Shown here piece by piece: positions 30,338-57,871 of a stretch of 64,000 bases of DNA. The position numbers and the translations under genes were made by a program. The DNA is taken from positions 8,214-72,213 of the forward strand of contig JADLHC010000130.1 in the NCBI GenBank assembly GCA_020849035.1. The letters are read 5' to 3'. The notes beneath the pieces were generated by a model that was not told the DNA's origin, did not search any database, and was given only the letters and a program-made list of their open reading frames with translations. The stretch's first letter is position 1, and each line of letters opens with the position of its first letter. Source of the DNA: Planctomycetia bacterium (GTDB lineage: Bacteria > Planctomycetota > MHYJ01 > WSZJ01).

Positions 30338-33300
30338 ATGGGCGGGGGGCGGGCGTGCGCGAAGTGCGGCGGCGACCTGGAGCTCCGGGCGGGCGGGTCG
30401 TTCTGCCCGCGGTGCGCCCTCCGCTCGGCCTTCGAGGACGATGCCCGCGTGATCCCGCCGGCGTCGTCGCTCCCGTCCCGGGGCGCCGTGCCCGCGGAGG
30501 TCCTGGCCGCGCCCGCCGATCACCGGATCGGGCGCTACGTCCGCACGGCGCGTCTCGGCGACGGCGGCATGGGCGAGGTGTGGCAGGCATGGGACACGGA
30601 GCTCGAGCGCTGGGTCGCGCTGAAATTCGTGAAGGGCGGGAGCGGCGAGGATGTGGAGCGCCTGCGCCGCGAGGCGCGCACGACCGCGACCCTGTCTCAC
30701 CCGAACATCGCCCCCGTGTTCGAGGTCGGGGAAGAGGGCGGACGGCACTTCATCGCGATGCGCCTCATCGAGGGGCGGACGATGAGGGGATGGCCGCGAG
30801 GGGACCGGGCGGAGGTTGTGGCCCTGGTCCGGGACGCGGCGCGGGCCGTGGCGCACGCGAATGATCGCGGGATCGTCCACCGGGACCTGAAGCCCGACAA
30901 CCTGATGGTGGAGCGTGGTCCCGCCGGGGCGCATGTGTGGGTCATGGACTTCGGGCTGGCCCGCGTCGTCTCCACCCCCTCGGGGTTCTCGGTGACCGGG
31001 ATCATTCTCGGCACGCCCGCCTACATGAGCCCCGAGCAGGCCGCAGGGGACCCCGCCGACGCGCGCTCGGACGTGTACTCGCTCGGCGCGACGCTCTTCG
31101 ACCTCCTCACCGGGCGGCCGCCGTTCGAGGGGAAGAGCAGCCTGGACGTGCTGCTGAAGGTCCGCCAGGACGATCCGCCGCGGCTGAGGGAACTGGACGC
31201 GACGCTGGAGCCGGACCTGGAGACGATCGTTGCGAAGTGCCTCGAGAAGGAAGCGGGGAGACGGTATTCGACGGTGGGGGAGGTGGCGGACGAACTCGAC
31301 CGGTGGCTGCGGCACGATCCGATCCGGGCGCGGCCGGCGAGCATCGCGTACCGGGCGCGCAAGGCGATCCGGCGACACCGCGCGCCTGTCGCCGTCGGCG
31401 CGGTGGCGCTCGTCCTCGTGGTGACGGCCGCCTCGTTCCGTCCGGCCTCGGAGGCGCTGGCGCGGTCGCGGGAGGCGGCGGCCCGGTCGGCGCGGGAGTC
31501 CGATGCGCGCCGGAGGCTGGCCGGGGCGCGCGAGCGGCTCGCGCGCGGCGAGGCGGCCGCCGCGCGCGACGAGGCGCTCGCGGTCGCCTCCATGACCGCG
31601 GACGGCGCCGCGATCCCCGTGGCGCAGGCGCATGCGGTTGCCGCGCAGGCGCTGGAACTGCTGGGGAAGGCGGACGAGGTTCACGCCGAGACCACGAGGG
31701 CCTGGATCTCAGGCGCCGCGTCCGCGGATCCGGGGGAACGCGCCGCTGCCGCGGAGGCGCTGTTCCTGGCCGGCCGGATCTGGGAGGCGCGAGGGGAGCT
31801 GTCGCACGCGCGCGGCGCCTGGCGCTCGGTCGTGTCCCGGTTCCCGGACGTCCAGTGCGCTCCGGACGCGGCCTTCTTCGCGGCGCGCGCAAGCATGCAG
31901 CTCGGCGAGCTCTCGACGGCCTTTCGCGAGTTCTCCGCGCTCGTCGCGCGGCCGGGACTCGATCCCTCCCGGAGGCAAGAGGCGGAGCAACGGGTCGACC
32001 TCCTGCGGCATCTCGCCTCCGTCCGCGAGTTCGCGCTGCCCCCCGGGCACGTCGTCGCGGCCCGGCTCCACGGCGGCTCGCCTCCACGCCTCGTCGCGCT
32101 CGGCCGCGACGGAGCCCTGCAGGTGCTGCAGTTTGGCTCCGCGGGCCTCGACGTCGCATTCGAGTCACGGCTCGCGGCGCCGCAACCGTCGGCCGTTTGG
32201 GTGCGCGCCTTCGCGGCCGACCTCGACGGCGACGGCTCCGACGAGATCCTCGCCACCTGGGACGCCCCGCGGCCCGAACTCTCCTTCGGAGGACTCCGCG
32301 TCCTCCGCCGGCGCGACCATGCCCTCGAGGCCGTCGCTGACATCCCCCTGAAGTCGAGCGTCGTCGCCGCCCTTCCCGTCGACCTCGACGGCGACGGCAG
32401 ACGCGAGCTCGTTTTCGGCACCCAGTACGAGGACCGCACCCTCCAGGTCTGGTCCCTCTCCGGCCCGTCTCCGCAGAAGCTCTTCGAGCATTCCTTCGGC
32501 GGCGGCTCCGACGTCTTCGATATCCGCGAGACCGGCGTTGCCCCGGGCGATTTGCTCGTCTCCTTCGGGGGCTGGAAGGGGTGGAGGCTGTGGCGTGCTC
32601 GCTGGCAGCCGGAGGCGAAACTCCTCGCCGCGTCGGCGACGTCGCCGGATCTCGTCCACGCGAGGTCGCTCGTTCTCCTGGCCCCCGGCCGCTTCGCCAT
32701 CGCCAACTGGTGGCCGGAGGACCATGCCCGCGCGGCCGGGCGGCTTTCGCCGGCTCACCGGCTGGAGCCCGGGCTTTACGAGGTGACGTGCAGCCGGGAG
32801 GGCGGGCTCGAAGCGCCGCGCCTGTGGATGTCGATCGACGGGGAGGCCGAGGTCGAGCGGGCGGCCCCGGCGCGGGTGGCGGGACGCGACATGGTCGTGC
32901 TCCAGTCGCGGAGGGTCGTGGAGGGCGGCTACAGGCCCCGGATCGACCTGGTCCCGGTGGACGCTCCCGGCGCGCCGGTCGCCACGCTCACCCTGGAGCC
33001 CGAGGTCTTCCTCGGCACCGCCGATTTCGACGGCGACGGCGACCTCGAGCTCGCGACCACGAGGTCAGCGGGGGGCGGCGGGCTGATCCGCGTCCATGGC
33101 TGGGGGGGAGCCGTCGCGGACGGCGATCCGGCCCGAGTCGAAGGGGACGCCGCCTCGGCCCTCGCGCCGGGCCGCGACCTTCTCGCCGCCGGGCTCTTCG
33201 ACGGCGCCGCCGACGCCTGCGCCCGTATCGGCGACTGGGTTGGCGCCGGCCTTGCCCGCATGGAACAGGGCCGCTTCGCCGACGCCGCCGACCTCCTCGG

Positions 33301-34381
33301 CCGCGCGGCCGGCTCCTCCCGCACCGAAGCCCTCCGGCACCTTGCGGCCTGCCTCCGCCGCCTCCGGGACTGGCCGCGTCTCTGCTCCACGCTCCAGGAA
33401 CTCTGCGAGCGGCCCGACCTCGATCCGCTCGAACGGCGGCAGGGCGAGCTCGAACTCCAGGCCGCGCACCTGTCCGCCCGCCTCGTGCCGCGCGCCGAAG
33501 TCCGGAGCCTGGCCTTCGCCCCGGGCCTCCGCGCCGAGAACCCCTGCCTCGTCCGCGCGGCGGGCGAAGACCTGGAGTTCCTCGTGGGCAAGGGCTACCG
33601 GACCTGCAGCGGGCTCCCGTTCGTGCTCACGGGCGGGCCGTTCCGCGCGCGGTGGTCCATGAAGATCGAGCCGCACGTCCTCGAGGCGAGCCCGATCGTC
33701 GGCTTCCGCGGCGCGCGCGACCGCCTCGGAGTCGCCTGCTTCCTCTCGGCGACGGCGAGCGCGCCGAGCGAGAAGCAGGCTCTGCTCTGGGACTGCGAGC
33801 CGTCGTGGTCGGAGAGCACGCCCGAACGGGACAACCGGTTCGAGACAGGAAGCGACTGGTTCGACGTCGAGATCGAGTACGCGCCTTCGGTGCCCATTCT
33901 GCACGCGACCTTCTCGCGCGGCGGGTCGCGCTACGACCTGGACCTGCACCCGCGCGGCCCGCTCACCCCCGGCGCCTACGTGTTCGGCCCGTTCGGACGC
34001 CGCGGCGAATCGGCGCCGACCGAGCAGCCCACGGTCGTGGTGATCCGGAACCTCGCGTTCGAGTCATCGGACCTCCTCTCCGGCCTCCGCCCGGCGTCGC
34101 CGGGCGACGACGACCCCCTCGGCGACGCCAACGGCCTGCTGGCGAAGGGGCGGGCCGAGGAAGCGCTGGCGCTCTACGGCCGCGCCGGGTCGGCCTCGCC
34201 CCGAGAGCACCCCGAGGCCGCGTTCTTCGCCGCGGTCGCGCTCCACAGGCTCGGCCGCGCCCCGGACGCCCGCGAGGCGCTTCGCACCCTGCGCGCCGCG
34301 GCCCCCGCCGATGCCGGCCGGCTCCTCTCCGAGTCCTGGGCAGGCCTTTCCGGCCCCGAGCGCGACTTTTTCCGGGAGTAG
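30338..34381 (+). CDS. Ser/Thr protein kinase, 1347 aa: N-terminal zinc ribbon, kinase domain, TM helix, large extracytoplasmic TPR / FG-GAP-like domain
   Basis: CAKCGGDL...CPRCAL; LGDGGMGEVWQAWD...VALKFV, HRDLKPDNLMV, DFGLAR, GTPAYMSPEQ; TM VAVGAVALVLVVTAASF; repeated DxDGDG motifs (DLDGDGSDE, DLDGDGRRE, DFDGDGDLE); RBS GGGGAGGAGG before ATG. Confidence 0.9.
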   Translation: MGGGRACAKCGGDLELRAGGSFCPRCALRSAFEDDARVIPPASSLPSRGAVPAEVLAAPADHRIGRYVRTARLGDGGMGEVWQAWDTELERWVALKFVKGGSGEDVERLRREARTTATLSHPNIAPVFEVGEEGGRHFIAMRLIEGRTMRGWPRGDRAEVVALVRDAARAVAHANDRGIVHRDLKPDNLMVERGPAGAHVWVMDFGLARVVSTPSGFSVTGIILGTPAYMSPEQAAGDPADARSDVYSLGATLFDLLTGRPPFEGKSSLDVLLKVRQDDPPRLRELDATLEPDLETIVAKCLEKEAGRRYSTVGEVADELDRWLRHDPIRARPASIAYRARKAIRRHRAPVAVGAVALVLVVTAASFRPASEALARSREAAARSARESDARRRLAGARERLARGEAAAARDEALAVASMTADGAAIPVAQAHAVAAQALELLGKADEVHAETTRAWISGAASADPGERAAAAEALFLAGRIWEARGELSHARGAWRSVVSRFPDVQCAPDAAFFAARASMQLGELSTAFREFSALVARPGLDPSRRQEAEQRVDLLRHLASVREFALPPGHVVAARLHGGSPPRLVALGRDGALQVLQFGSAGLDVAFESRLAAPQPSAVWVRAFAADLDGDGSDEILATWDAPRPELSFGGLRVLRRRDHALEAVADIPLKSSVVAALPVDLDGDGRRELVFGTQYEDRTLQVWSLSGPSPQKLFEHSFGGGSDVFDIRETGVAPGDLLVSFGGWKGWRLWRARWQPEAKLLAASATSPDLVHARSLVLLAPGRFAIANWWPEDHARAAGRLSPAHRLEPGLYEVTCSREGGLEAPRLWMSIDGEAEVERAAPARVAGRDMVVLQSRRVVEGGYRPRIDLVPVDAPGAPVATLTLEPEVFLGTADFDGDGDLELATTRSAGGGGLIRVHGWGGAVADGDPARVEGDAASALAPGRDLLAAGLFDGAADACARIGDWVGAGLARMEQGRFADAADLLGRAAGSSRTEALRHLAACLRRLRDWPRLCSTLQELCERPDLDPLERRQGELELQAAHLSARLVPRAEVRSLAFAPGLRAENPCLVRAAGEDLEFLVGKGYRTCSGLPFVLTGGPFRARWSMKIEPHVLEASPIVGFRGARDRLGVACFLSATASAPSEKQALLWDCEPSWSESTPERDNRFETGSDWFDVEIEYAPSVPILHATFSRGGSRYDLDLHPRGPLTPGAYVFGPFGRRGESAPTEQPTVVVIRNLAFESSDLLSGLRPASPGDDDPLGDANGLLAKGRAEEALALYGRAGSASPREHPEAAFFAAVALHRLGRAPDAREALRTLRAAAPADAGRLLSESWAGLSGPERDFFRE

Positions 34382-35228: not shown

Positions 35229-35738
35229 ATGACCGACCTCGACCAGATCGTCGTCTCCTCGTTGCGCAGCTTCCTCATGGAAGTCGTTTCCAACGGCTGG
35301 CAGGGGCGTGAAAGGGAAGCGGTCAGCCTCTACGCCTTCGGGGCGTTGCTCGCGGCCACGAAGCCGATGGTCGTCGACCCGCGCCAGATCGGCGTGGAGG
35401 TCGCCGTGCCCCAGATCCCCGCAAGAGGCGACGCCGCGAAGCTCTACGTCTGCAAGGACCTCGTGATCTGGCCGCGCCCGTTCGACAGCGCCTGGTCGAA
35501 CGCGGCCCCGCTCGCCGTCATGGAGTGGAAGGTCGATGCGGAGGTCAAGGCGCGGCGCGTCTCGGCCCCGGAGTTCCTAGAAACCGAACGGTGGCTCGAG
35601 GAGTTCACGCTCCTCCCGAAGCACGAGCAGACCTCCGGATATGCTGTCCACGTCAGCTTCTTCCCTCCGGCACGCGTCGTGTCCCTGCTCGCCTTCCGCT
35701 GCGGCAGGCGCTTCGAACTCACCCCGCACCTCTCCTGA
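35229..35738 (+). CDS. hypothetical protein
   Basis: 169 aa from MTDLDQIV, preceded by GGGAGGG RBS; no family recognised. Confidence 0.45.
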   Translation: MTDLDQIVVSSLRSFLMEVVSNGWQGREREAVSLYAFGALLAATKPMVVDPRQIGVEVAVPQIPARGDAAKLYVCKDLVIWPRPFDSAWSNAAPLAVMEWKVDAEVKARRVSAPEFLETERWLEEFTLLPKHEQTSGYAVHVSFFPPARVVSLLAFRCGRRFELTPHLS

Positions 35739-35806: not shown

Positions 35807-37216
35807 ATGCCGCCCTTCCTTCGCCGGTTCGCCGCCCTGCTGCTCCTTCCCGCGCTCGCCGCGCGCGCGGAGGAGGTCGACCTGTCCGACACCTGCCTGA
35901 AGCTCGCGGCCGTGCAGGAGCCGGACGTGGACGTTGCGAAGATGAAAGAAGCGCTGGCGGCGCTCGAGGCGAAGGCGAAGAAGCGGCTGGAGGGTGTGAA
36001 GGAGCCGCGGGAGGTCGTTGCGGGGCTGAACGAGGTCCTGCTGCTCGACCGGAAGGTCAGCTACATCTCGAACAAGTACTGGCGCGACTCGACGCTCGCG
36101 GCTTCCGTCCTGCGCGGGCAGGGGAACTGCCTGTCGACGTCGACGCTCTTCGCCGTCATCGGCCAGCGCCTGGGGCTGCCGATCCACGCGGTCACGGTCC
36201 CGGGGCACGCGTTCGCGCGGTTCGACGACGGGAAGACGCGGATCAACATCGAGACGACGAATCGCGGCGTCGAGATGACCGACGCGTACTACCGCTCGAT
36301 GGGGAGCTGGAGCGACGAGGACGCCGCCGCGATCGGCCACGGCCTGACCCTGTCCTCCGCGCAGTTCGCTTCGCTGCTCCACTCCTACGCCGGCCGCCAC
36401 CTCGTCTCGCTCGAGAAGCACACGGAGGCGCTGGCCCAGATCGACGCTGCGCTCAAGCTCTGGCCCGCCAACGAGGAGTACGCGCTGGAGCGCCTCGGGA
36501 TGCTCTACGACGGGCTGGGGAAGCGCGCGGAGGCGCTGAAGGGGTACCAGCGGCTGGCGAAGGAGGCGAAGAGCCCGGAAATCCGCGCCCGGTCGCTGGT
36601 CGGGATCGCGAACGACCTGCAGGCGACGGACAGGAACGAGGAGGCGCTCGACGTGCTGCGGCGGGCGTTCCACGACGCGCCGAAGTCGGCGCTTCCGGCG
36701 GTGCTGACGGAGATGGCGGCGTCGTACCGCACGCTGCGGCGGTTCAACGAGGCGCTGACGACGCAGGACCTCGCGCTCGCGGCGACGTTCCAGCCGGAGG
36801 CGGACGACTACACGCTGCTGGCGATCTACTACAAGAACGCGAACCTGCTGGACGACGCGATCCGCTGCCTCAAGCACAGCGTGGAGCGCAACCCCGAGGA
36901 CTGGAACACCCGCCTGATCCTCGCCGGCTACCTGATCCGCGGGAAGCGCGACGACGAGGGCTGGGAGTTGTTCAAGACGGTGCAGAAGCCGCCGGTGGAC
37001 GAGCAGTTCTACGAGACGAACATGGCGTGGTTCTTCGGGTCGGTCGGGAAGAAGAAGGAGTTCCTCGAGCACCTCGGGAATGCGCTCGACCTCGCGACGG
37101 AGCCCTCGATCCTGAACTACATCAAGACCGAGGTGGACTTCGACAAGTTCCGGGACGACGCGGAGTTCAAGGCGCTGGTGGAGAAGCACCGGAAGCGGCT
37201 GATGGAAAAGCGTTGA
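35807..37216 (+). CDS. secreted transglutaminase-like cysteine-protease-fold protein fused to TPR repeats
   Basis: Signal peptide MPPFLRRFAALLLLPALAARA with GAGGAG RBS; GNCLSTSTLFAVIGQRLGLPIHAVTVPGHAFARF = Cys...His arrangement of transglutaminase-like domain; C-terminal TPR helices. Confidence 0.7.
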   Translation: MPPFLRRFAALLLLPALAARAEEVDLSDTCLKLAAVQEPDVDVAKMKEALAALEAKAKKRLEGVKEPREVVAGLNEVLLLDRKVSYISNKYWRDSTLAASVLRGQGNCLSTSTLFAVIGQRLGLPIHAVTVPGHAFARFDDGKTRINIETTNRGVEMTDAYYRSMGSWSDEDAAAIGHGLTLSSAQFASLLHSYAGRHLVSLEKHTEALAQIDAALKLWPANEEYALERLGMLYDGLGKRAEALKGYQRLAKEAKSPEIRARSLVGIANDLQATDRNEEALDVLRRAFHDAPKSALPAVLTEMAASYRTLRRFNEALTTQDLALAATFQPEADDYTLLAIYYKNANLLDDAIRCLKHSVERNPEDWNTRLILAGYLIRGKRDDEGWELFKTVQKPPVDEQFYETNMAWFFGSVGKKKEFLEHLGNALDLATEPSILNYIKTEVDFDKFRDDAEFKALVEKHRKRLMEKR

Positions 37217-37322
37217 AGGGTTGATAGGTTGAGAGGTTGAGGGGGCCGCCATGCGGTCCGGAGGGCTCCCATGCGTAACCCTGATCCCCTCAACCCTTCA
37301 ACCCATCAACCTATCAACCCTC
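37212..37322. repeat. inverted arrays of 8-bp GTTGA(R)GG tandem units flanking a 40-bp spacer; embeds both convergent stop codons
   Basis: gttgaagg gttgatag gttgagag gttgaggg ...spacer ccgccatgcggtccggagggctcccatgcgtaaccctgat... ccctcaac ccttcaac ccatcaac ctatcaac cctc; TGA of 35807-37216 and TCA (minus-strand TGA) of 37314-38693 lie inside units. Confidence 0.75.
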
Positions 37323-38693
37323 GATCTCCGCCACGCCGGCACGCGCGCAGGCCTCGCGCATGTTCCCGCGCTTGAACTCAAGGTCCTTCGGCGTGCCGGA
37401 CTCGCGGAGGACCGACTCGCCGGCCCGCCACGCCTCCCGCGCCTCTCCCCGCCGCCCCTGGGCCGCCAGCACGCAGGCAAGGTCGCACTGCGCGCCTCCC
37501 TCGAACCGCCGGTTCCGCATGTCGCGGTGAATCCCCAGCGCCTCGCGCAGCGCCGCCTCCGCGGCCGCCGGGCGCCCCGTTTCGAGAAGCAGCAACCCGA
37601 GATTGCCGAGCTCGATCCCCTCGGACCGCCGGTTCCCGACCTCCCGGTGCACCGCGAGCGCCTCCGCGAACGCCCGTTCCGCCTCCGCAAGCCGGCCCAG
37701 GTCCTGCAGCACGTTCGCGAGATGCCCGAGCGAGATCCCCTCCGACCGGCGGTTCCCGATCTCACGGTGGATCGCGAGCGCTTCCCGGTGCGCCGCCTCC
37801 GCCTCAGCAAGCCTCCCCGCCATGCGCCGGACGAGCGCCAGCGCGCCGATGGCCACGCCTTCGTGAAGGCGGTTCCCCGTCGCGCGGTGAAGGGCGAGGG
37901 CCTGTTCGGCGGCGGCTTCCGCCTCCGCGTGCTTTCCGCCCTCGCGAAGGAGGGCGCCGAGATGACCCAGCGCGATCCCTTCGCCCTCCGCGTCGCCCGC
38001 CTGCCTCAGCAGCGCCAGCGCCTCTTCGAGCAGGCGCGCGGCGCTCGCCGCCCTTCCCGTCTCTCGGTGCAGGTTGCCCAGGACGGTCATCGCGCGCCCG
38101 AGCAGGCGCGAGTCCCCGGCGGCCTCGAGAGCAGCGACGACCTCCTTCTGCAAACGTTCCGCCTCGGAGGGGCGTCCCGTTTCGAAGAGCAGGCTGGCGA
38201 GATTCCCCCTCGTGGCCGTCGCCTCCCTCGCGTGTCCCCCCGAGGCCAGGAGCGGGATCGCCTCGAGGAGCAGCCGCTCCGCTTCCCGGACCTGGCCGCT
38301 GCGCCAGAGAGCCTGCGCGGCGCCCCGGAGCGCCTCGCCCTTCCGGGCCCCTTCGCTTCCCGCCGCCAGCCTCTTCCACAGCCGGATCGCCGCGCCGAGC
38401 CGCCACGACCGCTCTTCGAACGCCGCCGCCCGGCGGAGCGCCCCACGCTCGGCCTCTCCCCATCGCGCCACGTCGCCCCCGCCCGCCGCCCCCCGCGCGT
38501 GGTCCGCCAGCTCCTCCGCGAACGCGTCGATCTCGTGAGGTCCGATCCCCGGGGGAAGCCCGCCGTGCAGCGCTTCGATCGCCGCGAACGCCGCGCCGTG
38601 CAGCCGCGCCCGGTCGCCCGGCAACTGAAGCTGGTACGCGGCGTCCCGCAGGACCGCGTGGCGAAAGAGGCAGGACTGCTCCGCGTGCACCAC
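37314..38693 (-). CDS. TPR-repeat protein, paralog family A (N-motif FRHAVLRDAAYQLQLPGDRARLH; C-terminal CARAGV)
   Basis: 459 aa; many 34-aa TPR units (GNRRSEGI.LGNL... AL..HRE); shares N- and C-terminal motifs with 38700-40091 and 55995-57497. Confidence 0.75.
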   Translation of the reverse strand: MVHAEQSCLFRHAVLRDAAYQLQLPGDRARLHGAAFAAIEALHGGLPPGIGPHEIDAFAEELADHARGAAGGGDVARWGEAERGALRRAAAFEERSWRLGAAIRLWKRLAAGSEGARKGEALRGAAQALWRSGQVREAERLLLEAIPLLASGGHAREATATRGNLASLLFETGRPSEAERLQKEVVAALEAAGDSRLLGRAMTVLGNLHRETGRAASAARLLEEALALLRQAGDAEGEGIALGHLGALLREGGKHAEAEAAAEQALALHRATGNRLHEGVAIGALALVRRMAGRLAEAEAAHREALAIHREIGNRRSEGISLGHLANVLQDLGRLAEAERAFAEALAVHREVGNRRSEGIELGNLGLLLLETGRPAAAEAALREALGIHRDMRNRRFEGGAQCDLACVLAAQGRRGEAREAWRAGESVLRESGTPKDLEFKRGNMREACARAGVAEIEG

Positions 38694-38699
38694 GCGAGT

Positions 38700-40091
38700 C
38701 TAACCGGCCCCGTCGAAGGGCTCGACGCCGGCGTCCGCGCACGCCTTCGCCATCGTCTCCCGCTTCCGGACCAGACTCCCGCTGTCCCCCACCTCCCGCA
38801 ACAGATCCGTCCCCCGCCGCCAGTCGGCCCGCGCTTCGTCGAGGCGGCCCTCGCGCACGTGGAACACGGCGCGTTCGCACAGGACGATCCCCTCGGACCG
38901 GCGATTCTGGAAGCGCCGGTGAGTGGCGAGGGCTTCCTCCACCGCTGCGAGGCCGCGCGCCCTTTCGCCGCGCTCCAGGAGGAGACTCCCCAGGTTCCCC
39001 AACGCCGCGCCCAGCATGCGGCCGTTGTCCACCTCGCGATGAAGCGCGATGGCCGCGACGAGCAGGCGTTCCGACTCGGCCGGGCGATCCGTGTTCATGA
39101 GGTGCGCGCCGAAGTTCATGAGCGTCGTGGCCTCCGAGCGGCGGTTGCCGGTCTCGCGGTGGATCGCGAGGGCCGCCTCGAAGGCGCGCTCGGCGTCGGT
39201 CCGGCGATCCGCGGTGCTGTGCATGACGGCGAGATTCCCCCACGCGATCCCCGCCGACCGGCGGTCTCCGCGCTCGACGAACGCGTCGAGCGCCTTCGTC
39301 GCCGCCTCCACCGCCTGGTCCGTCCGGCCGCTCTCCTGCAGCAGCCCGGAGAGATTCGCCAGCGCCTTCGCCTCGTTTTCGCGGTCCCCCAGCTCCCCGT
39401 GCGTCGCCAGCACTTCCCGCAGAATCGCCTCCGCTTCCCGGACCCGCCCCGTCATGCGCAGGAGGACGGCCTGTCCGTTCTGCGAGGCGGTCGCCGCGAG
39501 CCGGTCGCCGTCGGCGCGCTGGAGGGCGAGGGCCTCGTCGAACCGCCGCCGCGCGCCCTCGACGTCGCCGAGTTCCAGCAGCACGAAGCCGAGCTGCGTG
39601 ACGGCGCCGGCCTCGCGGTGCCGGACTCCGCCGGCGCGGAAGAGGGCGATAGCGTCTTCCCACAGTTCGACCGCGGCGCGAGGGCGCCCGGCGTGTGCCG
39701 CGGCAGTCGCGGCCTCCGCGGTCGAGTCCGCCCTCTGCACGCCCTCGCACAGCTCCGCATGCGCCCGCCAGAGCCGCTCCGCAGCTTCGTCCCGGTACAT
39801 CGCCGCCGCATGCCGGGCCGCCCGCGCCAGGTAGAGCCTCCGCACCCCGTCCTGTCCCGCCCCCGCGGCGTGGGCCGCCAGCTCCTCCGCCACCGCATCC
39901 GACGCATGTCCGCCCTCCGCCGCCGGCCGGCCCCCGAATCCCCGCTCGATCGCCTCCAGCGCCAGCCCGTGCAGCCTCTCGCGGTCGCCCGGAAGCTGGA
40001 GCTGGTAGACGGCTTCGCGTGCCATCGCATGCCGGAAGGCGTACGCGACCTCCGCGAAGGGCGGTCCTGGCGTCTCCGGTTCGTCGGCCAC
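38700..40091 (-). CDS. TPR-repeat protein, paralog family A (tandem copy)
   Basis: 463 aa; AYAFRHAMAREAVYQLQLPGDRERLHGLALEAIE near N-terminus; C-terminal KACADAGV; 6 bp from downstream paralog. Confidence 0.75.
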   Translation of the reverse strand: MADEPETPGPPFAEVAYAFRHAMAREAVYQLQLPGDRERLHGLALEAIERGFGGRPAAEGGHASDAVAEELAAHAAGAGQDGVRRLYLARAARHAAAMYRDEAAERLWRAHAELCEGVQRADSTAEAATAAAHAGRPRAAVELWEDAIALFRAGGVRHREAGAVTQLGFVLLELGDVEGARRRFDEALALQRADGDRLAATASQNGQAVLLRMTGRVREAEAILREVLATHGELGDRENEAKALANLSGLLQESGRTDQAVEAATKALDAFVERGDRRSAGIAWGNLAVMHSTADRRTDAERAFEAALAIHRETGNRRSEATTLMNFGAHLMNTDRPAESERLLVAAIALHREVDNGRMLGAALGNLGSLLLERGERARGLAAVEEALATHRRFQNRRSEGIVLCERAVFHVREGRLDEARADWRRGTDLLREVGDSGSLVRKRETMAKACADAGVEPFDGAG

Positions 40092-40112
40092 CGCCCGAGT
40101 CTACCCGGGCGA

Positions 40113-41132
40113 TCAGCCGTCCCCCTCCCGTTCGGGAAGCGCCGCCTTCAGCCGCTCGGGCATGGTCTCGAGAAGCCGGGCTGTCCAGTCCGCGACGGCG
40201 ATCGGCTTGACGATGTCCCGCAGGGCGCACTCGACGACGGCGCCGTTGCGGCCCCGGGCCAAGAGGAGGCCCAACGTCGGGCCGTCCCCCGGCCTGCGGA
40301 ACCGGTCGTCCACCGCGGAGAGGTAGAAGTTGAGCTTGCCCGCGAACTCGGGACGGAACGCGCGCGCCTTCAAATCCACGACGACGAAGCAGCGCAGGTC
40401 GAGGTGGTAGAAGAGGAGGTCCAGCCAGAACTCGTCGCCTCCGACGTCGAGCCGGACCTGGCGGCCGACGAGGGCGAACCCCGTCCCCAGCTCCAGCAGC
40501 GTCTGCTGGACGTGGTCCACCAGTCCCTGCTCCAGGTCGCGCTCGGCCGCGTCGCCGGAAAGGGTGAGGAAATCGAAGTTGTAGGGATCCTTGAGGATCG
40601 AGGCCGCGAGGTCGGACTTCTCGGGCGGAAGTATGCGGGAGAAGTTGTTCGAGGTGCGGCCTTCGCGCTCGTGCAGTCCGGACTCGATTTGAAGGTCCAG
40701 TACGGCACGGGACCAGCCGTGGGCCACCGCCTTTCGCGCATACCAGGCGCGGAGGTCGGATTGCTTCAAGGCGCGCAGCAGCAAGAGGTTAGGGCCCCAG
40801 GGCAATTGTCCAACACCCTGTTGGACATTTTCCTCCGCGGGCCAGGCCGCGGCGAAAGCGCGCATGTGCATGAGATTCGCGCGAGAGAAGCCGCGCATCG
40901 CGGGGAACTCGCCGGTGAGGTCCTGGGCAAGGCGGTCGACAACTCCTGCCCCCCAACCTTGTTCTTTCTGGGCGCGGAGGATGGAGCGACCGATTTGCCA
41001 GTAAAGCAAGACCAGCTCGCGATTGACTGCGGTCGCAGCGCGCGTTTGGGCGGAATAGACCTTGCTCTTCAACTCGGCGAGCAGGGGCAGGTAGCCATCC
41101 AATGGCGGCCTGTACTCCGGTGGAGAAGGCAT
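40113..41132 (-). CDS. YhcG/DUF1016-family PD-(D/E)xK nuclease domain protein
   Basis: 339 aa; C-terminal ILKDPYNFDFLTL...ERDLEQGLVDHVQQTLLELGTGFALVGRQVRLDVGGDEFWLDLLFYHLDLRCFVVVDLK matches YhcG-type PDDEXK core. Confidence 0.8.
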   Translation of the reverse strand: MPSPPEYRPPLDGYLPLLAELKSKVYSAQTRAATAVNRELVLLYWQIGRSILRAQKEQGWGAGVVDRLAQDLTGEFPAMRGFSRANLMHMRAFAAAWPAEENVQQGVGQLPWGPNLLLLRALKQSDLRAWYARKAVAHGWSRAVLDLQIESGLHEREGRTSNNFSRILPPEKSDLAASILKDPYNFDFLTLSGDAAERDLEQGLVDHVQQTLLELGTGFALVGRQVRLDVGGDEFWLDLLFYHLDLRCFVVVDLKARAFRPEFAGKLNFYLSAVDDRFRRPGDGPTLGLLLARGRNGAVVECALRDIVKPIAVADWTARLLETMPERLKAALPEREGDG

Positions 41133-41239
41133 CCATCCTCCAGGCGCGGTGAGGGACAGGGGGGCGCGGGCTCGCCGTGCGAGACCCGGATCGCCCGCCG
41201 CGCGGGACCGAAGCGGCGCAGGGCCGCCTCGGGAGGCGG

Positions 41240-41340
41240 ATCGAATGTTCGTATTCAGTATCGCTTATGTTAGTGGAAAGTCAAGCTAAATTTGGGAACT
41301 TGTCTCGAAAATGAAACACCATCTTCCGCGCTCGCACCGC
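41240..41340 (+). promoter_or_regulatory. AT-rich putative promoter region upstream of S8-peptidase operon
   Basis: cgaatgttcgtattcagtatcgcttatgttagtggaaagtcaagctaaatttgggaacttgtctcgaaaatgaaacacc: local GC far below window mean, 200-300 bp upstream of 41543 start. Confidence 0.35.
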
Positions 41341-41542
41341 CGGCGTGATTGCTCGTGTGGAAGTTCCGAGCCCGTGACCGCCAGCCGCGAAGGGCAGGAC
41401 CACTCGAGTTCCCAGCGACCCGCTCTCCGGATCCCCCTAGATCGCCACCTTCCGTCATTTCCTTGCCACAGACACGGCCCGGGGAGAGGATGCTCCACCC
41501 CGGCTCGAGGGATCCGGGTTTCCATTTTCAGGGTAGTGGCCC

Positions 41543-43120
41543 GTGAAGAACTTGTGTGCGGTCCTCCGTCCTTGCTTCGTCGCGATCGCCGCTCTCGGCG
41601 CGTGTGCCGAAGACGCGTCGTCCCCGGTGACCGTCGCCCTCGTTGACTCCGGCGTGGACCCTTCCCATCCGGCCCTTCAAGGCGCCCTCGTTGCCGGCGT
41701 CGATGTGCTCAACCCCGGGAAAGCCATGGCCGACGCGTCCGGGCACGGGACTGTGATGGCCGGCCTCATCGTGGGGCGGTCGGACCGGCCCGAAGTGCGG
41801 GGCTGGGCGGCGGACGAGGCTGTGAGCCTCCTGCCGATCAAGGTGACGGACGGCGAAGTCGTCGCGCCGGCCGCGCTGGCCGCCGGCATCGACGCCGCCG
41901 TCGAGCGCAAGGTCGCCGTGATCTGCATCCCGCTCGCATCCCCAGAGTCAACCGCCGAGATCGACGCCGCACTCGATCGCGCCCGCGAGGCCGGGATCCT
42001 CGTCGTCTCCGCGGCGGGGCCGGTCTCCCCCGAGTTCGGAGGGTTCGACCTTCAGCCCGCGGCTCACCCGTGGGTCGTGTCCTGCACCGACTCGGAAGTG
42101 GGCCCGCTGCTCCTTCCCCGCGGTCGTGGCGTCGCAGCCCGCGGCGCGCGCGCCGAACGTGTCCCGGCCGGAAGCGCCGCGACGGGCAAGACCGAACTCA
42201 TGGTCGACGGCCGCGCGATCCCGATCGCCGTCAAGGGTGCACCGGAGACGATTCGCGGCACCTCTGTCGCCTGCGCCCGCGCCGCGGCGCTCGCCGCGCT
42301 CCTTCGCGCGGCCCGCCCGGACCTCGACGCCGCCCGAGCCCGAGAAATCCTCGTGACCGCCGGCCCGCTTCCCGAGGGGATCCGCGAGCAGGCCACCGAG
42401 CGGCTGCGAAGGGCCAGCCGCGAGGGCGTGACGGCCTGGTCGCGCAGGCGAGACGGTCCCGCCGGGGACCTGTACATCGCCACCGTCCGCCGCGCGCACG
42501 GTCCGCAGAAGTGCCTGCAGGTCCTGGTCGAGGTCGCCAATCTCGGCGGCGCGCCCCTCGCCGGGCGGGTCGAGTTCCAGCCGCCGGGCGACCGCGACCT
42601 GCTCTCCGAGGATCTCGAACCGATTCAGCCAGGCGGCCGCCGGGCCGTCGTCTTCCGTCTGCTGGACGTGCCGTTCAACGAGGTCGCGCTCGTCCGGCTC
42701 GTCGCCCCGGAGGACATCAACCCCGGGAACAACGTGACTCGCGTGATCTGCCACCCGCCGGAACAGGGCGGCGTCGAGGTCCACGGTCTGCGCCTCCTCG
42801 GTCGCCGCGCCGGATCGCCGCGGGTCGTCGCTTCCGCCCGCCTCTGGAACGCCCTCGAGGAGCCGCTCGAGGTCGACGTATCCGCGGGCGTCGGCGAGGC
42901 CGGCGGGACCGCGCGCGCCACGGTCCCGGGGGCGGGGTTCGCGGACGTGGAGATTCCCTTCGACGTGCCTGGCGGCGCCGATCCCATGGAGTCGCCCTTC
43001 GTGCTGTCCGTCACCTCCGGCCGCCGGCAAGTCGCGCGCGCCGCAGCCCTTCTCGATTTCGGCCCCGCCGAGTTCGTCCCCAGGCTCACCCCGCCGTTCC
43101 CCGGGAGGAAAGTACGCTGA
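41543..43120 (+). CDS. secreted subtilisin-like S8 peptidase with C-terminal CARDB-like domain, no propeptide
   Basis: Signal MKNLCAVLRPCFVAIAALGACA; catalytic D (VALVDSGVD), H (SGHGTVMAG), S (GTSVACARAAAL); oxyanion position reads AAGP instead of canonical AAGN; C-terminal VEFQPPGD...INPGNNVTRV CARDB-like. Confidence 0.85.
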   Translation: MKNLCAVLRPCFVAIAALGACAEDASSPVTVALVDSGVDPSHPALQGALVAGVDVLNPGKAMADASGHGTVMAGLIVGRSDRPEVRGWAADEAVSLLPIKVTDGEVVAPAALAAGIDAAVERKVAVICIPLASPESTAEIDAALDRAREAGILVVSAAGPVSPEFGGFDLQPAAHPWVVSCTDSEVGPLLLPRGRGVAARGARAERVPAGSAATGKTELMVDGRAIPIAVKGAPETIRGTSVACARAAALAALLRAARPDLDAARAREILVTAGPLPEGIREQATERLRRASREGVTAWSRRRDGPAGDLYIATVRRAHGPQKCLQVLVEVANLGGAPLAGRVEFQPPGDRDLLSEDLEPIQPGGRRAVVFRLLDVPFNEVALVRLVAPEDINPGNNVTRVICHPPEQGGVEVHGLRLLGRRAGSPRVVASARLWNALEEPLEVDVSAGVGEAGGTARATVPGAGFADVEIPFDVPGGADPMESPFVLSVTSGRRQVARAAALLDFGPAEFVPRLTPPFPGRKVR

Positions 43121-46100
43121 TGAAGAGCTCGACCGTGATCGCGTGCCTGCTCGCGCTGTTCTTCACGGCCTGCGGCAAGCCGCCCGTGCCGCCGCGGCCA
43201 GCTGTGCCGCAACAGCCGCCCCAGGGCGACCCGCCGCCGCGCGATCCCCCGCCCGCGACTCCCGCTGCATGGGCGCCCCGCGCAACTCCGATCGAAGGCG
43301 ACATCGTCGTCGCCGTGATCGACACCGGCGTGGACGCGACGCACCCGGCGCTGAAGGGCAAGGTCCTCGAGGGCGTCTCGCTCGCCCCCGTCCCCGGCAC
43401 GACGGAGGACGCGATCGGCCACGGCACGGCCGTCGCGGGTCTCGTCTGCGCCGACGCCGAAGACGACCAGTTCGACGGCGTCTGTGCGAAGCAGCCGGTG
43501 AAGATCCTCCCGATCAAGGTGACCGGCGACCTGGGCGCGGAGGCGCTGCCGACCGCCGTCGGCCTGGCCGTGACCGAAGCCGTGAAACGCGGCGCCCACG
43601 TCGTCTGCATCCCGATGGGCGGCTCGTTCACGACCGACGCCCTGGAGTCCGGGATGGCGCTGGCGAAGGAGAAGGGCGTGCTGGTGCTCGCCGCGGCGGG
43701 GATCGGGACGCCTGCGACGCACGACTTCTACCCGGCCGCCCACCCCTGGGCCATTTCCTGCACCGGCGAGCGGGAAGCGCGGACGGAGACGTTCGCCGGG
43801 CGCGAGATGCAGTGGTACTACCGCGCCGACTACGCGAACTGGTCCGGCAAGACGGAGCTCATGGGCCCGATCTTCGCGAAGGTCCTCGCCCCCGGAGACG
43901 GCTACGCGTCGCTGCAGGGCACGAGCGTCGCCTGCGCGCGTGCCGCCGGCCTCGCCGCGAAGCTCATCGCCGCGAACCGGAGCTGGAGCGCCCAGCGCGT
44001 GCGGGACGTGCTGACGCTGTCGGGGTCGCCGGACTATGCCGGTAACGCCTATGCGCACTGCCCCGCGCGCCATGTCGATGCGGAGATACTCGATGATGCG
44101 ACGAAGTCGCCGCCGAAGGAGAAGTCGGATCTCGCCGTGCTCTGGATAGAGCCGGAACCCTGGCCGAAGCCCGATCAGGCCTTTCGTGCACGAGTGGAGG
44201 TTCGGAACGTGGGGGCTGCCCCCGGCGCGGGAAGCGTCACCTTCCGGATTGCCTCGGAGAATGTCGAGGTGAAGGTCCCCATCAGTGAGTTGCTACCGGG
44301 CGAAGGTTGCACGGTCCGGATCCCTGTTCCAGGACTAAAGCAAGGCAAGTTCTTGAGTGAAGTCGAGGTCTTCGAGGACAAAGCGGCCAGCCTCGCGAAC
44401 AACCGGTTGATCGCGAAGCTCGCGGTGGATCCTCGCGACAACGCGGCAGGATGTGGGCTTGTCTGGCTTGAGGGGATGCGTGCCGATTCGGACGAGTTGG
44501 TCCTGCACGGGCTCGCCTCGAATCCGAACGATCGCGCTCTCGAGACGGCAATCTCCGTCGCCGTTGCGGAACCGGATGCCAGGCTGCAACTCCGTTTGAA
44601 TCCGTTCGAGTCGCGGTGGGTTCGGTTGCCCATGGTCATAGGCAAGCCGGGTGGCGGCAAGAAGGGCGTCGCCGTCGTCGTGAAGACCGTTGAAGAAGGC
44701 GAGTCCTTCGGGAACGTAACTGTCCTGCTCGATGTCTCCCGAACTACTTACTCACCGCAGTACGCCGACGTATGGGGATTGAAGGAGATCATCGTGGATG
44801 CGCCGGCTAGCATCTCTACGGCGCGCTCCACCCTTCCCATCATGCTGTTCACTCCCGAGATTCACACTGCGCAGCTCCCAGAGCGGTTCCTTTACGAGGA
44901 TGGGGACACCGGGGAGTTGTATGCAGGCTCCGGCCTCTGGTTGTCCGATGTGATGATTGACCTGCTGAGCGGTCCTCAGGCAGCCACCCACGTACCGCAG
45001 CCCAGGTTCGATCCGCACGTCCCAACCGGGCGATGCCTGTTCCGGGCCCACCAGGAACTCGGATCTTCCGTGCTCAGTGGTCCAGTCACATTCTGGAATC
45101 GAGGTCGGTCGGCCCGTGTGGAGAACTGGTGCGGAACGAAAGTAGGCCGTGACCAGTTCCTCGGCTGGAAGCGCCATGATGGCTGGCATGCGGTCATTGT
45201 CGTTCCACGCGAAGACGTCGAGTACTTCGCGCAGCAGGACTATGACCGGGTCAGGGATGAGTACTTCAGGGTTGCGGTCCATTACTTCTCCCTCGCGAAG
45301 CACCCCAGCGTCACCAACTCGAAGCGCCGCGGCTACGACGAACGGACCGAGGAACAGGACCAGGAACTCTGGCAGGAAACCGTCCTCCGCGTCACGTTTA
45401 ACGTGGATCCCCCGAGGCTGGATGACAGGGGGCACTACTACGACGTGCACGTCCACACGGCGGCGGAGTTCTCGCGCGACGCCGTGGAGCCCCGGCTGGC
45501 CTTCGGCGGGCCGCCGTGGATGATCGCGCGGAGCGCCCATGCGATGGGGTTGATCGACGACGAGGATCTGCTGACGGTTCTGCTCCGCGTTCATCCGGCG
45601 GGCCAGGCGTTCGCCGCGCGATGGAACTTGCAGCTCGGCGAAGACGTGCTCATCACGACCGACCACAACTGTTTTCTCTCCGACACGGACGAGCCCACGG
45701 CTGCGCCGTGGGGCGGGAGATTCGGCGGGAACGAGATCGGCGTCCTGCGCGAGTCGTTCGGACGCTGCGACAACCAGGAGCTCTCGATGGCCAAGCCGTT
45801 CGCGGCCACGGGCGCGATGCACGCCCTCGTCTACGGCGCGGAGCCGATGGAAGGCCCGTGGCACGGCGGCCGCGGCATGCGCGGCATGCTGGCGGCGATC
45901 CGGGACACGCTCGAAGCCGTGGCGCTGACGGATCGCGCCATGGACTACCTCGGCTGGCACCCGAAGACGAAGAGGCTGAAACCGCCGACGTGGGTCATCG
46001 CGAAGCTGCTTCACCTGCTCAAGTACGGCGCCGGCGTGACGGAGCAGCAGAGCGCCGAGGTCCGGGACGGCCTGCAGGAGTGCCTGAAGTCCGTCCTGGA

Positions 46101-49832: not shown

Positions 49833-49931
49833 GCGGCCCGGGACGCATCGGACGCGGCATGCCGCGTTGACGGCACAGCGACAGCCGGTCGGCTCCTTCG
49901 TGCATCGACGGGCCTCCAGGCGGCGGCCTGC

Positions 49932-53278: not shown

Positions 53279-53468
53279 CGGTGCTATTCGAAGAAGGCAC
53301 GAGCGTAGCCGCGTGACGGGGCGGTTTCAAGCAAGCGGGGGGGCGGGTCGGGCTCATGGCGCTGGCACTCCGAGCGGACGGTGCGACTTACGCCGGAAAC
53401 GGGCGGGTGTGACGGGGAATCCGGATGGCGGGGGAGCGGTGTCACGGTGCGGGGGCGGTCGCGTAGGT

Positions 53469-53505: not shown

Positions 53506-53533
53506 TGGGCCCGCGGGAACTTCGATCGGAGAG

Positions 53534-57870: not shown

Positions 57871-57871
57871 C

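Follow-up and report, generated by a model that had tools for sequence, protein, structure and literature searches.

TPR proteins of an amplified Planctomycetota gene family very probably derive from the C-terminal half of cyclase-type STAND ATPases

A 64,000-nucleotide stretch of a Planctomycetia bacterium (GCA_020849035.1, contig JADLHC010000130.1, positions 8,214 to 72,213; the window) contains a tandem pair of TPR genes, named here TPR_B and TPR_A, downstream of a gene for a YhcG/DUF1016 nuclease, and a dispersed third copy, TPR_C. What these TPR proteins are, and whether they form a unit with the nuclease, is the question raised by this locus. The first-pass annotation had likened their N-terminal motif to the tail of the STAND winged-helix region, considered the proteins NTPase-less remnants or partner sensors, and suggested a TPR-sensor plus nuclease-effector unit.

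Three TPR paralogs and their family

The annotated coordinates and gene content, two genes of ~460 codons in tandem and a third copy elsewhere, are correct (Table 1). TPR_B lies upstream of TPR_A with a gap of exactly 6 bp, and pairwise identity among the three proteins is 43-45%. Comparison of the sequences confirmed that all three have both an N-terminal motif (N-motif) and a C-terminal motif (C-motif). For the latter, the presence in each copy stood, while the pattern first given was slightly mis-registered for TPR_C; the common core is [AT]-C-A-[RDK]-A-G-V. TPR_A consists of a winged-helix tail, an arm, ~9-10 TPR_12-type repeats and a C-terminal capping helix, with Pfam matches to TPR_12 (2.9e-36), TPR_10 and TPR_MalT. 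A protein identical to TPR_A is encoded on 5 Logan metagenome contigs. The TPR_C reading frame is open as far as 57686; we placed its start at 57497 because this is supported by the family-wide start position, the chosen codon lying 8 codons before the Phe of the N-motif, the commonest position in the family. Long antisense ORFs in this region, e.g., 37251-41273 on the forward strand, were rejected as genes, as their codon-position G+C mirrors the real genes, and are artefacts of the 70-75% G+C content.

Table 1 Features of the window around the TPR genes and the YhcG gene.
Feature	Position	Strand	Description
Hairpin	37212-37325		long, imperfect, of GGTTGA-type octamers; RNA fold -61.4 kcal/mol, z = -5.3
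TPR_A	37314-38693	-	459 aa; ORF and codon-position G+C
C-motif of TPR_A	37332-37361	-	MREACARAGV
N-motif of TPR_A	38598-38672	-	residues 8-32, CLFRHAVLRDAAYQLQLPGDRARLH
TPR_B	38700-40091	-	463 aa; longer, 18-residue leader precedes the N-motif
C-motif of TPR_B	38724-38753	-	MAKACADAGV
N-motif of TPR_B	39969-40043	-	residues 17-41, YAFRHAMAREAVYQLQLPGDRERLH
YhcG/DUF1016 PD-(D/E)xK nuclease	40113-41132	-	339 aa; Pfam PF06250 and PF17761
TPR_C	55995-57497	-	500 aa, GTG start; dispersed third family member
C-motif of TPR_C	56013-56042	-	MRSTCAKAGV
N-motif of TPR_C	57405-57479	-	residues 7-31, YLFRHALLRDAAYQVQIPGDRARLH

TPR_A, TPR_B and TPR_C are members of a large, unnamed and heavily amplified gene family specific to the Planctomycetota lineage. 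More than 100 homologs of 430-520 aa, annotated merely as TPR proteins of Planctomycetota MAGs, carry both motifs, at residue ~9 (N-motif) and at the protein end (C-motif). More than 586 pattern matches came out of a genome scan, of which 266 were confirmed, and 76 loci from ~19 assemblies (by accession prefix) were kept, all from MAGs labelled Planctomycetota, Planctomycetia or Brocadiia save one 'uncultured bacterium'. With the N-terminal 133 aa of TPR_C as query, 555 representative proteins were matched at E<=1e-3 and 273 at E<=1e-10, the best 150 all aligning at their own N-terminus; family size is at least 273 clusters at 50% identity, every one from a MAG of the Planctomycetota. The start codon lies 4-14 codons upstream of the N-motif in 163 of 183 occurrences, most frequently 8 or 9. 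Further paralogs, which the first-pass annotation had proposed to search for, were found by the dozen in single genomes, often as tandem arrays in which the genes are closely packed or overlap, and two MAGs supply ~36-37 family genes each. Among 90 neighbouring pairs of family genes, 53 share a strand and lie at most 150 bp apart, and stop and start overlap in 23 of these 53 (starts as assigned in this analysis).

A winged-helix tail at the N-terminus

The N-motif is the last wing strand, the conserved His and the next helix of the STAND winged-helix domain. By hhalign, the first ~115 residues of the family match the C-terminal part of cyclase-AAA_16 STANDs (97.5%, E 7e-12; family columns 5-132 on STAND columns 571-671 of 728), and both alignments show F, H, R, Y, R and H as invariant or almost invariant at the same positions. 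From its position 829 on, the TIGR03903 kinase/cyclase/ATPase profile matches TPR_A, starting at residue 6 of the latter. Full-length cyclase-AAA_16-TPR proteins (Guanylate_cyc, AAA_16 and TPR) of the same MAGs contain the motif, internal rather than terminal (..LFRHALIRDAAYGLVTKKERARLH..), ~110 residues past the GGNP motif, and it was seen at the same place in ~100 cyclase-AAA_16 proteins of other phyla among ~120 matches listed. In the AlphaFold2 model of one STAND (P0124, pLDDT 86.5), the motif comprises wing strand 527-529, His531 and helix 532-540. Foldseek matched the TPR-STAND structure 6MFV, in which His382 of the winged helix forms hydrogen bonds with the phosphates of ADP, while the arm is in autoinhibitory contact with the NBD (PMC6468293).

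The proposed likeness to the winged-helix tail is thus upheld by hhalign, TIGR03903 and the internal STAND copies alike, and the N-motif is not simply a first TPR helix. The family proteins are indeed NTPase-less and contain no P-loop domain. The family very probably originated from the C-terminal half of STAND ATPases of the cyclase type (AAA_16). Winged-helix tail, arm and TPR_12/TPR_MalT-type sensor of the cyclase-AAA_16-TPR STANDs (MalT/PH0952-type, TIGR03903-like kinase/cyclase fusions) are collinear and homologous with it, whereas the family lacks the effector domain, P-loop NBD and helical domain, keeps only the last strand and helix of the winged helix, adds the conserved C-motif and occurs in arrays of dozens of copies per genome.

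The TPR-like regulators of the NsdA family in Streptomyces and the C-terminal TPR region of AfsR are likewise TPR modules, stand-alone or C-terminal, with a relation to STAND sensors. Membership of the family in either was rejected: the NCBIfam matches are below cut-off (NsdA 61.7 bits vs 75; AfsR 96 bits vs 1430) and cover TPR repeats only, leaving out both motifs.

Conservation at both termini

Across 69 sequences, F10, R11, H12, A13, R16, Y20, P25, L31 and H32 of the N-motif are invariant. Its mean consensus fraction is 0.90 in 160 genes, compared with ~0.5 elsewhere in the protein, while synonymous codons vary normally (observed/expected entropy: N-motif 0.89, other conserved columns 0.91). 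The family consensus of the C-motif is M-R-x-A-C-A-[KR]-A-G-[VI]-P-P-[FL]-[DE]-E; its Cys stands ~14 residues before the protein end. The strict pattern was matched in 134 of 160 family genes; occurrences beyond the called genes are mainly truncated or unrecognised family copies, and the C-motif was not found in the three full-length STANDs examined. Intact reading frames, a fixed start and constraint on the protein sequence characterise the family genes, and the term 'remnants' therefore had to be dropped.

Possible function of the family proteins

The family members are cytoplasmic sensor-arm-only proteins that start at the tip of the winged-helix 'wing'. Of the winged helix they retain the final wing strand, the conserved His and the terminal helix, followed by the helical arm, about ten TPR_12-type repeats and a family-specific C-terminal helix and tail (MRxACAKAGVPPFDE). 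The constant N-terminal module may dock in trans on STAND nucleotide-binding modules or another common partner, the variable TPR surfaces may bind different ligands or proteins, and cyclase/kinase STAND signaling would thereby be restrained or re-targeted. Docking in trans is favoured because winged-helix tail and arm are among the parts that contact the NBD in solved STANDs, because they are the best-conserved part of the family proteins, and because at least one MAG has cyclase-STAND genes within its family arrays. We propose this trans-acting mechanism tentatively, as one possibility; the account as a whole, a STAND-derived sensor-arm family docking in trans with YhcG as a separate gene, comes close to an even chance.

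Duplicated STAND-pathway modules persist as separate genes in human CARD-only and PYD-only proteins and in truncated plant NLR genes. Such domain-only modules can act in trans on their parent machinery, and domain-only decoys regulate inflammasome proteins. These regulators comprise few effector or adaptor domains with demonstrated decoy function, whereas the Planctomycetota family is a hugely amplified sensor half known from sequence.

Regarding gene linkage, two loci (L029 and L032) have a cyclase-STAND gene within a family array of the same strand or at its end; at a third (L008) such a gene is divergently adjacent to family genes, and at a fourth (L040) it is one gene away. STAND genes are embedded in family arrays in the MAG X3_MetaBAT.40; for L082, fourth cyclase-STAND of the same MAG, the 10 kb upstream contain no family gene. 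Around most of the ~96 arrays, no STAND gene occurs within 10 kb, family paralogs far outnumber the STAND genes seen, and no NOD protein lacking its own winged-helix tail, the obvious complementation partner, was found in the neighbourhoods or the cyclase-AAA_16 listing. STAND adjacency could reflect merely an origin by local partial duplication.

The scarcity of nearby STANDs would also suit proteins that are STAND-derived but now STAND-independent, i.e., autonomous TPR scaffolds in which the N-terminal segment caps the arm and TPR solenoid. They would act as general protein-protein adaptors, e.g., in Ser/Thr kinase signaling, with an own client for each paralog. The immediate neighbours of family genes are heterogeneous without a conserved partner gene, Ser/Thr kinase genes are somewhat nearer to family genes than expected (12 of 23 at a distance of ~2.1 kb or less), and one member, P0044, is fused to an APH-type kinase-like domain. 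Moreover, the AlphaFold2 monomer of TPR_A is a complete and confident solenoid of 22 helices (pLDDT 95.6), in which the N-motif is modelled less confidently (pLDDT 73-80) as a helix that packs against the arm, so that its conservation could be structural. Foldseek matched this model to the TPR superhelices of LGN/Pins, KLC and OGT; LGN/Pins and kinesin light chain share the superhelical TPR_12-type fold (E ~1e-10, TM 0.4-0.6) but are eukaryotic scaffolds without evolutionary or contextual link, the likeness being generic for TPR solenoids. However, a purely structural cap rarely stays at ~90% identity when framework TPR positions have fallen to ~50%, the retained residues are those conserved in STANDs, including the position-equivalent of the ADP-contacting His, and the X3_MetaBAT.40 arrays do contain STAND genes. 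We consider such scaffolds rather unlikely.

Conservation of both termini around a variable middle would further be expected if the N-terminal module and the C-terminal tail (..ACAKAGVPPFDE) were mutual docking sites, by which co-expressed paralogs of one array chain head-to-tail into mixed TPR filaments or rings. Tight packing with frequent start/stop overlap and a C-motif specific to the short family fit this idea, and members truly without C-motif tend to have a more divergent N-motif (0.77-0.85 vs a mean of 0.93). This co-variation is, however, weak and confounded by overall divergence, 29 of 74 loci have a single family copy, and TPRs usually bind extended peptides in their groove and not at a terminal cap, which makes head-to-tail assembly improbable.

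The YhcG neighbour

The nuclease gene directly upstream of the tandem pair was correctly annotated: YhcG, co-directional with TPR_B, ends 21 bp upstream of it, matches YhcG_C (3.7e-55) and DUF1016_N (1e-41), and displays a PD-(D/E)xK signature (..WLDLLFYH.. / ..VVVDLKA..). The sole sigma-70-like site of the region (41284-41257, reverse strand) is upstream of YhcG, a hairpin follows TPR_A, and YhcG and the TPR genes are probably co-transcribed in this genome. This arrangement, together with a match of YhcG to the PADLOC candidate defence family PDC-S02 (E 2.5e-133; both Pfam domains far above threshold), would agree with a two- or three-gene defence unit of tandem TPR sensors and a nuclease effector. 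PDC-S02, however, is a YhcG-only family that requires no TPR partner. Of the 76 related loci, just 2 have a YhcG gene close to a family gene; they belong to two further MAGs (L047, L001), and both times the orientation is divergent. Among 122 immediate neighbours of family genes, 1 is a YhcG (the gene at L047:2386-3801). Conversely, no family gene occurs in the vicinity of the 80 metagenomic YhcG sequences most closely related to this one (flanks up to 6 kb, 518 kb of DNA). The adjacency is therefore not conserved, and the co-occurrence data largely refute the proposed sensor-effector unit, which we rate as very improbable. The G+C content of YhcG (0.663) is below that of the TPR genes (0.745), and its closest relatives stem from loci of 0.39-0.66. 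The sequence right before the TPR_B start resembles the TPR_B/TPR_A junction, suggesting that YhcG landed beside a pre-existing array. YhcG is a separate, unrelated and mobile neighbour that heads the array in this genome and no conserved partner.

Remaining alternatives and the region downstream of TPR_A

In CDI/Rhs systems, orphan toxin modules recombine into an expressed gene. Family genes might likewise be silent cassettes, stored sensor arms that recombine into an expressed STAND gene at the conserved motif, as same-strand arrays flank STAND genes and the motif lies exactly at the junction. The motif is, however, conserved at the amino-acid and not the DNA level, the longest amino-acid runs common to STAND and family (LFRHAL, RDAAY, RARLH) are too short for homologous recombination, and STAND arms and TPRs share only ~27% identity with family proteins and carry no C-motif. 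With conserved starts of their own and stop/start overlaps between neighbours, the family genes appear to be translated as such, and a cassette function is highly doubtful. The reading as functionless, pseudogenised 3' halves of STAND genes, to which the missing NTPase and some frameshifted STAND copies (L008, L032) might point, is refuted and barely conceivable given 160 intact ORFs of consistent length and fixed start, strongly conserved amino acids with free synonymous variation, a gained family-specific C-motif and an identical protein in several metagenomes.

The hairpin of GGTTGA-type octamers sits between the convergent ends of a transglutaminase-TPR gene and TPR_A, its right-hand arm overlapping the last codons of the latter, and is likely a bidirectional terminator or a repeat element.

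Paralogs at the window locus

Throughout this region G+C lies at ~70-75%, and a gene call required G+C at codon position 3 to be above that at position 1; in the TPR genes, position 1 almost equals position 3. A long plus-strand ORF over the region was rejected by codon-position G+C as an antisense artefact of base composition. The gene for the DUF1016 nuclease YhcG and the TPR_B and TPR_A genes are co-directional, with gaps of 21 bp and then 6 bp. Over their whole length TPR_A, TPR_B and the third paralog TPR_C share 43-45% pairwise identity and all carry the same N- and C-terminal motifs, as the first-pass annotation had described. Conservation of the C-motif was confirmed as well, but the expression given there does not quite fit TPR_C; common to all three is the core [AT]CA[RDK]AGV.

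Features of the window around the TPR paralogs
Feature	Coordinates	Strand	Size	Basis or remark
Ser/Thr kinase	30338-34381	+	1347 aa	long C-terminal region without a relative in the 76 loci
ORF	35229-35738		169 aa	no Pfam match; between kinase and transglutaminase-like genes
Transglutaminase-like (Transglut_core2) + TPR protein	35807-37216	+		immediately downstream of the array
Hairpin	37212-37325			RNA fold -61.4 kcal/mol, z -5.3
TPR_A	37314-38693	-	459 aa	codon-position G+C and Pfam
TPR_B	38700-40091	-	463 aa	codon-position G+C and Pfam
YhcG	40113-41132	-	339 aa	codon-position G+C and Pfam
S8 subtilase	41543-43120
Giant S8 protein	43123-48741		1872 aa
TPR-CHAT	49932-51980	-
sigma70_r2-like protein	52010-53278	-		long tail
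Second copy of hairpin element	53470-53500			single arm
ARPP-1	53534-54478
TPR protein	54734-55870			weak TPR-S match
TPR_C, third paralog	55995-57497	-		ORF and both terminal motifs
ORF overlapping HTH + Peptidase_M78 gene	57872-59483	-	175 aa (ORF)
HNH_2 endonuclease	59510-60655

YhcG, TPR_B and TPR_A probably form one transcript in this genome, since the only sigma-70-like site in 37000-41700 precedes YhcG and a strong hairpin follows TPR_A. This hairpin, placed where the transglutaminase-TPR gene and TPR_A converge, is long and imperfect, with GGTTGA-type octamers and CCCATCAA on the other arm. Its 16-mer has 6 matches in the window against 0.01 expected, and the second copy of the element precedes the ARPP-1 gene, in a divergent intergenic region. 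Internal repeat homogenisation was considered and rejected, the sole array found being one of 120 bp in TPR_A, with 2.7 copies at 72% identity. Neither Rfam nor tRNA scanning of the whole window gave any match.

The N-terminal motif is the end of a STAND winged helix

All three paralogs match TPR_12 (2.9e-36, 7.4e-31 and 8.2e-51), and the 22-helix AlphaFold2 model of TPR_A together with TPR solenoids retrieved by Foldseek agrees with a superhelix of ~34-42-residue helix-turn-helix repeats. As the first-pass annotation had proposed, the proteins are NTPase-less: Pfam gave no AAA_16, NACHT or NB-ARC match in TPR_A, TPR_B or TPR_C. The N-terminal 133 aa are without a Pfam match even at E<=1. Each protein begins 8-18 residues ahead of the N-motif.

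In four genes of related loci (L029 3187-6783, L040 2747-6244, L008 and L032), long coding extensions lie upstream of this motif. These genes encode Guanylate_cyc + AAA_16 + TPR proteins, the L032 copy being frameshifted, and are referred to here as STANDs. Their motif is internal (..LLPGDDQHLFRHALIRDAAYGLVTKKERARLH..), ~110 residues past a GGNP[LY]Y[VL]EE motif. A search with the region from AAA_16 to the winged helix (NOD) retrieved cyclase-AAA_16 proteins of many phyla, most of which have G[DE]xQ[FY]xF[KR]HALIRDVAYxxLPRAxRRxxH at the same place. Invariant or near-invariant in the STAND alignment are F529, H531, R535, A538, Y539, R547, H551 and, later, H576; the family counterparts F10, H12, R16, A19, Y20, R28, H32 and, later, H65 are invariant. 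Profile-profile comparison by hhalign aligned family columns 5-132 with STAND columns 571-671 of 728 (101 columns, 97.5% probability, E 7e-12). TIGR03903, the NCBIfam model of a kinase/cyclase/ATPase fusion, starts its alignment at residue 6 in both TPR_A and TPR_C and at its own position ~829 of 1267, and BLASTP of the TPR region against the L029 STAND gave E 1e-18. The suggestion that the N-motif is the end of a STAND winged-helix region was thereby upheld, and homology extends through the arm, the helical segment after the winged helix, into the repeat sensor.

Structural models place the truncation point. In the AlphaFold2 model of the Planctomycetia STAND P0124 (pLDDT 86.5), the motif covers the second wing strand 527-529 (paired with 513-515), His531, helix 532-540 and helix 544-559, and the remaining winged-helix elements (helices 471-509, strand 513-515) come before it. 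The family does not contain a complete winged helix; all that it keeps is the final wing strand, the His and the final helix. With the P0124 model as query, Foldseek retrieved the TPR-STAND crystal structure 6MFV as well as cyclase domains; PDB sequences searched with the L029 NOD gave no match. The winged-helix domain of 6MFV closes with the S7-S8 wing and helix H12, its His382 hydrogen-bonds the ADP phosphates, and its arm, built of three helical hairpins, contacts the nucleotide-binding domain in an autoinhibitory manner (PMC6468293). Judged from matching topology rather than by residue-level superposition, H12 of TPR_A corresponds in position to His382. The family thus descends from STANDs: half a wing, the His and the last winged-helix helix are followed by the arm, a TPR sensor and a new C-motif, and there is no NTPase.

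An amplified family with a fixed start

TPR_A used as a protein query retrieved over 100 proteins, 430-520 aa long, at ~40-46% identity and ~100% coverage, named merely 'tetratricopeptide repeat protein' and every one from Planctomycetota MAGs. Nearly all carry AYLFRHALLRDAAYQLQLPGDRARLH from about residue 6-9 and end in ..MReACAKAGVPPFDE... A scan of species-representative genomes gave over 586 pattern matches, and 266 of them were confirmed. The 76 best loci, from about 19 assemblies as counted by accession prefix, belong to MAGs labelled Planctomycetota, Planctomycetia or Brocadiia, bar one 'uncultured bacterium'. Two MAGs each yielded at least about 36-37 family genes. A protein identical to TPR_A was found on 5 Logan metagenome contigs, the three shown coming from three different runs.

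The truncation point is fixed. Against 1.84 billion representative proteins, the N-terminal 133 aa of TPR_C had 555 matches at E<=1e-3 and 273 at E<=1e-10, and the best 150 all align at their own N-terminus. Across 1.34 Mb of related loci and the window, a start codon lies 4-14 codons upstream in 163 of 183 motif occurrences, most commonly 8 or 9 codons before the Phe, and 57497 is therefore supported as the start of TPR_C.

Family genes are frequently arrayed, with two to eight copies in 45 of the 74 sequences that carry them. Of 90 neighbouring family pairs, 53 share a strand and are separated by no more than 150 bp, which makes the window's 6-bp tandem pair a typical arrangement for the family; stop and start codons overlap in 23 of these 53, by our own start assignment. 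One member, P0044 (798 aa, JGI metagenome), has the N-motif at residue 13 and a C-terminal APH-type (aminoglycoside phosphotransferase-like) kinase domain; no other clear domain fusion was seen among family members.

Pfam and NCBIfam hold no model for the N-terminal ~130 residues or the C-motif, and no description of an NTPase-less sensor-arm family was found in the literature searched; the TPR passages of Kaur et al. 2020 (PMC7159879) do not describe it.

Conserved termini and possible modes of action

Across 160 unique family genes, the mean consensus fraction is 0.90 for residues 10-32, 0.63 for the C-motif and 0.47-0.63 for the rest of the protein. The strict pattern M-R-x-A-C-A-[KR]-A-G-[VI]-P-P-[FL]-[DE]-E, with its Cys ~14 residues from the end, occurs in 134 of the 160; outside called family genes it was found mainly in truncated or unrecognised family copies. 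A second conserved Cys stands at position 403. The TPR_A model is a 22-helix solenoid at pLDDT 95.6, with the first 20 residues at 73-80 and modelled as helix, and Foldseek with it returned generic TPR scaffolds only.

In STAND/NLR proteins, sensor, arm and NTPase normally belong to one chain and regulate each other in cis. Here the sensor-plus-arm half survives as a separate gene in dozens of copies per genome and retains the STAND-conserved winged-helix residues, including the counterpart of the ADP-contacting His of a solved TPR-STAND. The components (TPR, STAND arm, YhcG) are all of known kinds; what is new is a sensor-arm-only STAND derivative with a truncation point fixed inside the wing, a gained C-motif and, in a single bacterial lineage, expansion to dozens of copies in arrays. 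Annotation of Planctomycetota MAGs would benefit from a model of the family.

We tentatively favour docking in trans, because the elements that touch the nucleotide-binding domain in solved STANDs are kept and best conserved, and the TPR surfaces differ between paralogs. The constant N-terminal module might dock on STAND nucleotide-binding modules or another shared partner, and docked proteins could modulate or re-target cyclase/kinase STAND signalling. Action in trans would exemplify, in bacteria, STAND signalling regulated by modules or decoys, and would offer a tractable route to the role of the winged-helix tail and arm alone. Almost as likely as docking in trans, the proteins may be autonomous TPR adaptors whose N-terminal segment is a structural cap.

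A more specific version of trans-docking, which we regard as rather improbable, holds that the family is an exchangeable repertoire of sensor subunits, docking on or completing the nucleotide-binding module of a few cyclase/kinase STANDs via the winged-helix strand, His and arm. If true, dozens of TPR surfaces could share one NTPase engine, and bacteria would possess an NLR-like receptor system that is split and combinatorial; the C-terminal tail might in addition allow assembly head to tail. That paralogs assemble head to tail by way of both conserved termini is a fainter possibility still.

Silent recombination cassettes are very unlikely. The ratio of observed to expected synonymous codon entropy is 0.89 in the motif versus 0.91 in other conserved columns; constraint therefore acts on amino acids, which rules out DNA-level conservation of the motif as a recombination site. 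CDI/Rhs-type cassettes need DNA-level junction homology and recent C-terminal exchange, whereas STAND and family arms are only ~27% identical and the C-motif is absent from the full-length STANDs examined. Similarly, there is hardly any chance that these genes are pseudogenes, or the remnants suggested by the first-pass annotation, given their fixed start and the protein-level constraint on their termini: they are functional and selected at the protein level.

YhcG is not part of the TPR unit

The first-pass annotation had proposed that TPR sensors and the adjoining nuclease effector could form one unit. YhcG itself is a candidate for defence: DUF1016_N and YhcG_C both score above Pfam thresholds (142.7 bits, cut-off 32.8, and 186.5, cut-off 32.5), the PD-(D/E)xK signature D...D-x-K is visible, and residues 12-336 match the PADLOC candidate defence family PDC-S02 (E 2.5e-133). 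Co-occurrence fails from both sides. YhcG is present in two of the 76 best family loci, in orientations unlike the window's: at L047 it is flanked by two family genes of the opposite strand (L047:2386-3801, the one YhcG among 122 immediate non-family neighbours), and at L001 it is divergently oriented, with 349 bp separating it from a five-gene array. No family gene was found near the 80 closest metagenomic YhcG relatives (50-60% identity, 518 kb of DNA, locus G+C 0.39-0.66). YhcG is not part of the TPR unit, the family is independent of it, and a nuclease-coupled defence unit is correspondingly most improbable, which removes a false lead.

G+C is 0.663 in the window YhcG versus 0.745 in the TPR genes. 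YhcG seems to have landed next to a pre-existing array, because the bases directly before the TPR_B start (TAGACTCGGGCGGTG, 40092-40112) resemble the junction of TPR_B stop and TPR_A start (TAGACTCGCGTGGTG, 38694-38699). Another family gene may once have preceded TPR_B, where YhcG now sits.

Neighbours of family arrays

No gene family accompanies the arrays consistently. A Pfam scan of the 122 immediate neighbours, leaving out genes >900 aa, revealed no consistent partner; the commonest non-TPR neighbours were catalase-peroxidase (4), aminotransferase (3), protein kinase (3) and AAA_14/DUF4143 (3). All-against-all clustering of ~1100 flanking ORFs gave Ser/Thr kinases as the sole recurrent family. 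Kinases were recounted separately because of the size limit of the scan, and 12 of 23 kinase genes lie within about 2.1 kb of a family gene in loci chosen through a family gene.

In MAG X3_MetaBAT.40, one STAND gene stands between same-strand family genes with a 48-bp gap (L029, region 1717-6950), a frameshifted one follows four or five same-strand family genes (L032, region 213-9585), and a third is divergently adjacent to an array (L008); a fourth STAND has no family gene in the 10 kb upstream. In another MAG, a STAND gene is one gene away from an array (L040). Partial tandem duplication as the origin, a functional link or the two together would fit this linkage. Both the STAND and the kinase proximity signals are suggestive only, since loci were selected through the family gene without a genome background.

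STANDs stopping just before the motif, as split partners would, were found neither in the loci nor among 120 NOD homologs; P0121 of L032 was rejected in this role as a frameshifted STAND copy. Many zinc-ribbon + cyclase + AAA_16 proteins of other phyla (P0127-P0240; Chloroflexota and several actinobacterial groups seen) are only ~650-730 aa long and end ~120 residues past the winged-helix tail motif, with an arm and no TPR sensor, a mirror image of the family.

TPR_C lies within a stretch (41543-60655) rich in conflict/defence-type genes. CHAT, S8 proteases, ARPP-1 and M78 were rejected as family-wide associates, their microsynteny being with single MAGs only (L010, L060, L050). On a Hainich groundwater contig (P0004 locus, L080 307-14402), tandem family genes, two confirmed and a third by size and position, come after a CHAT protein (1062 aa) and a caspase-like Peptidase_C14 (587 aa) and before a Pkinase + FGE-sulfatase protein. 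The order of family gene then kinase-FGE recurs in several loci of MAG H51-bin301_1 (L034, L050, L042).
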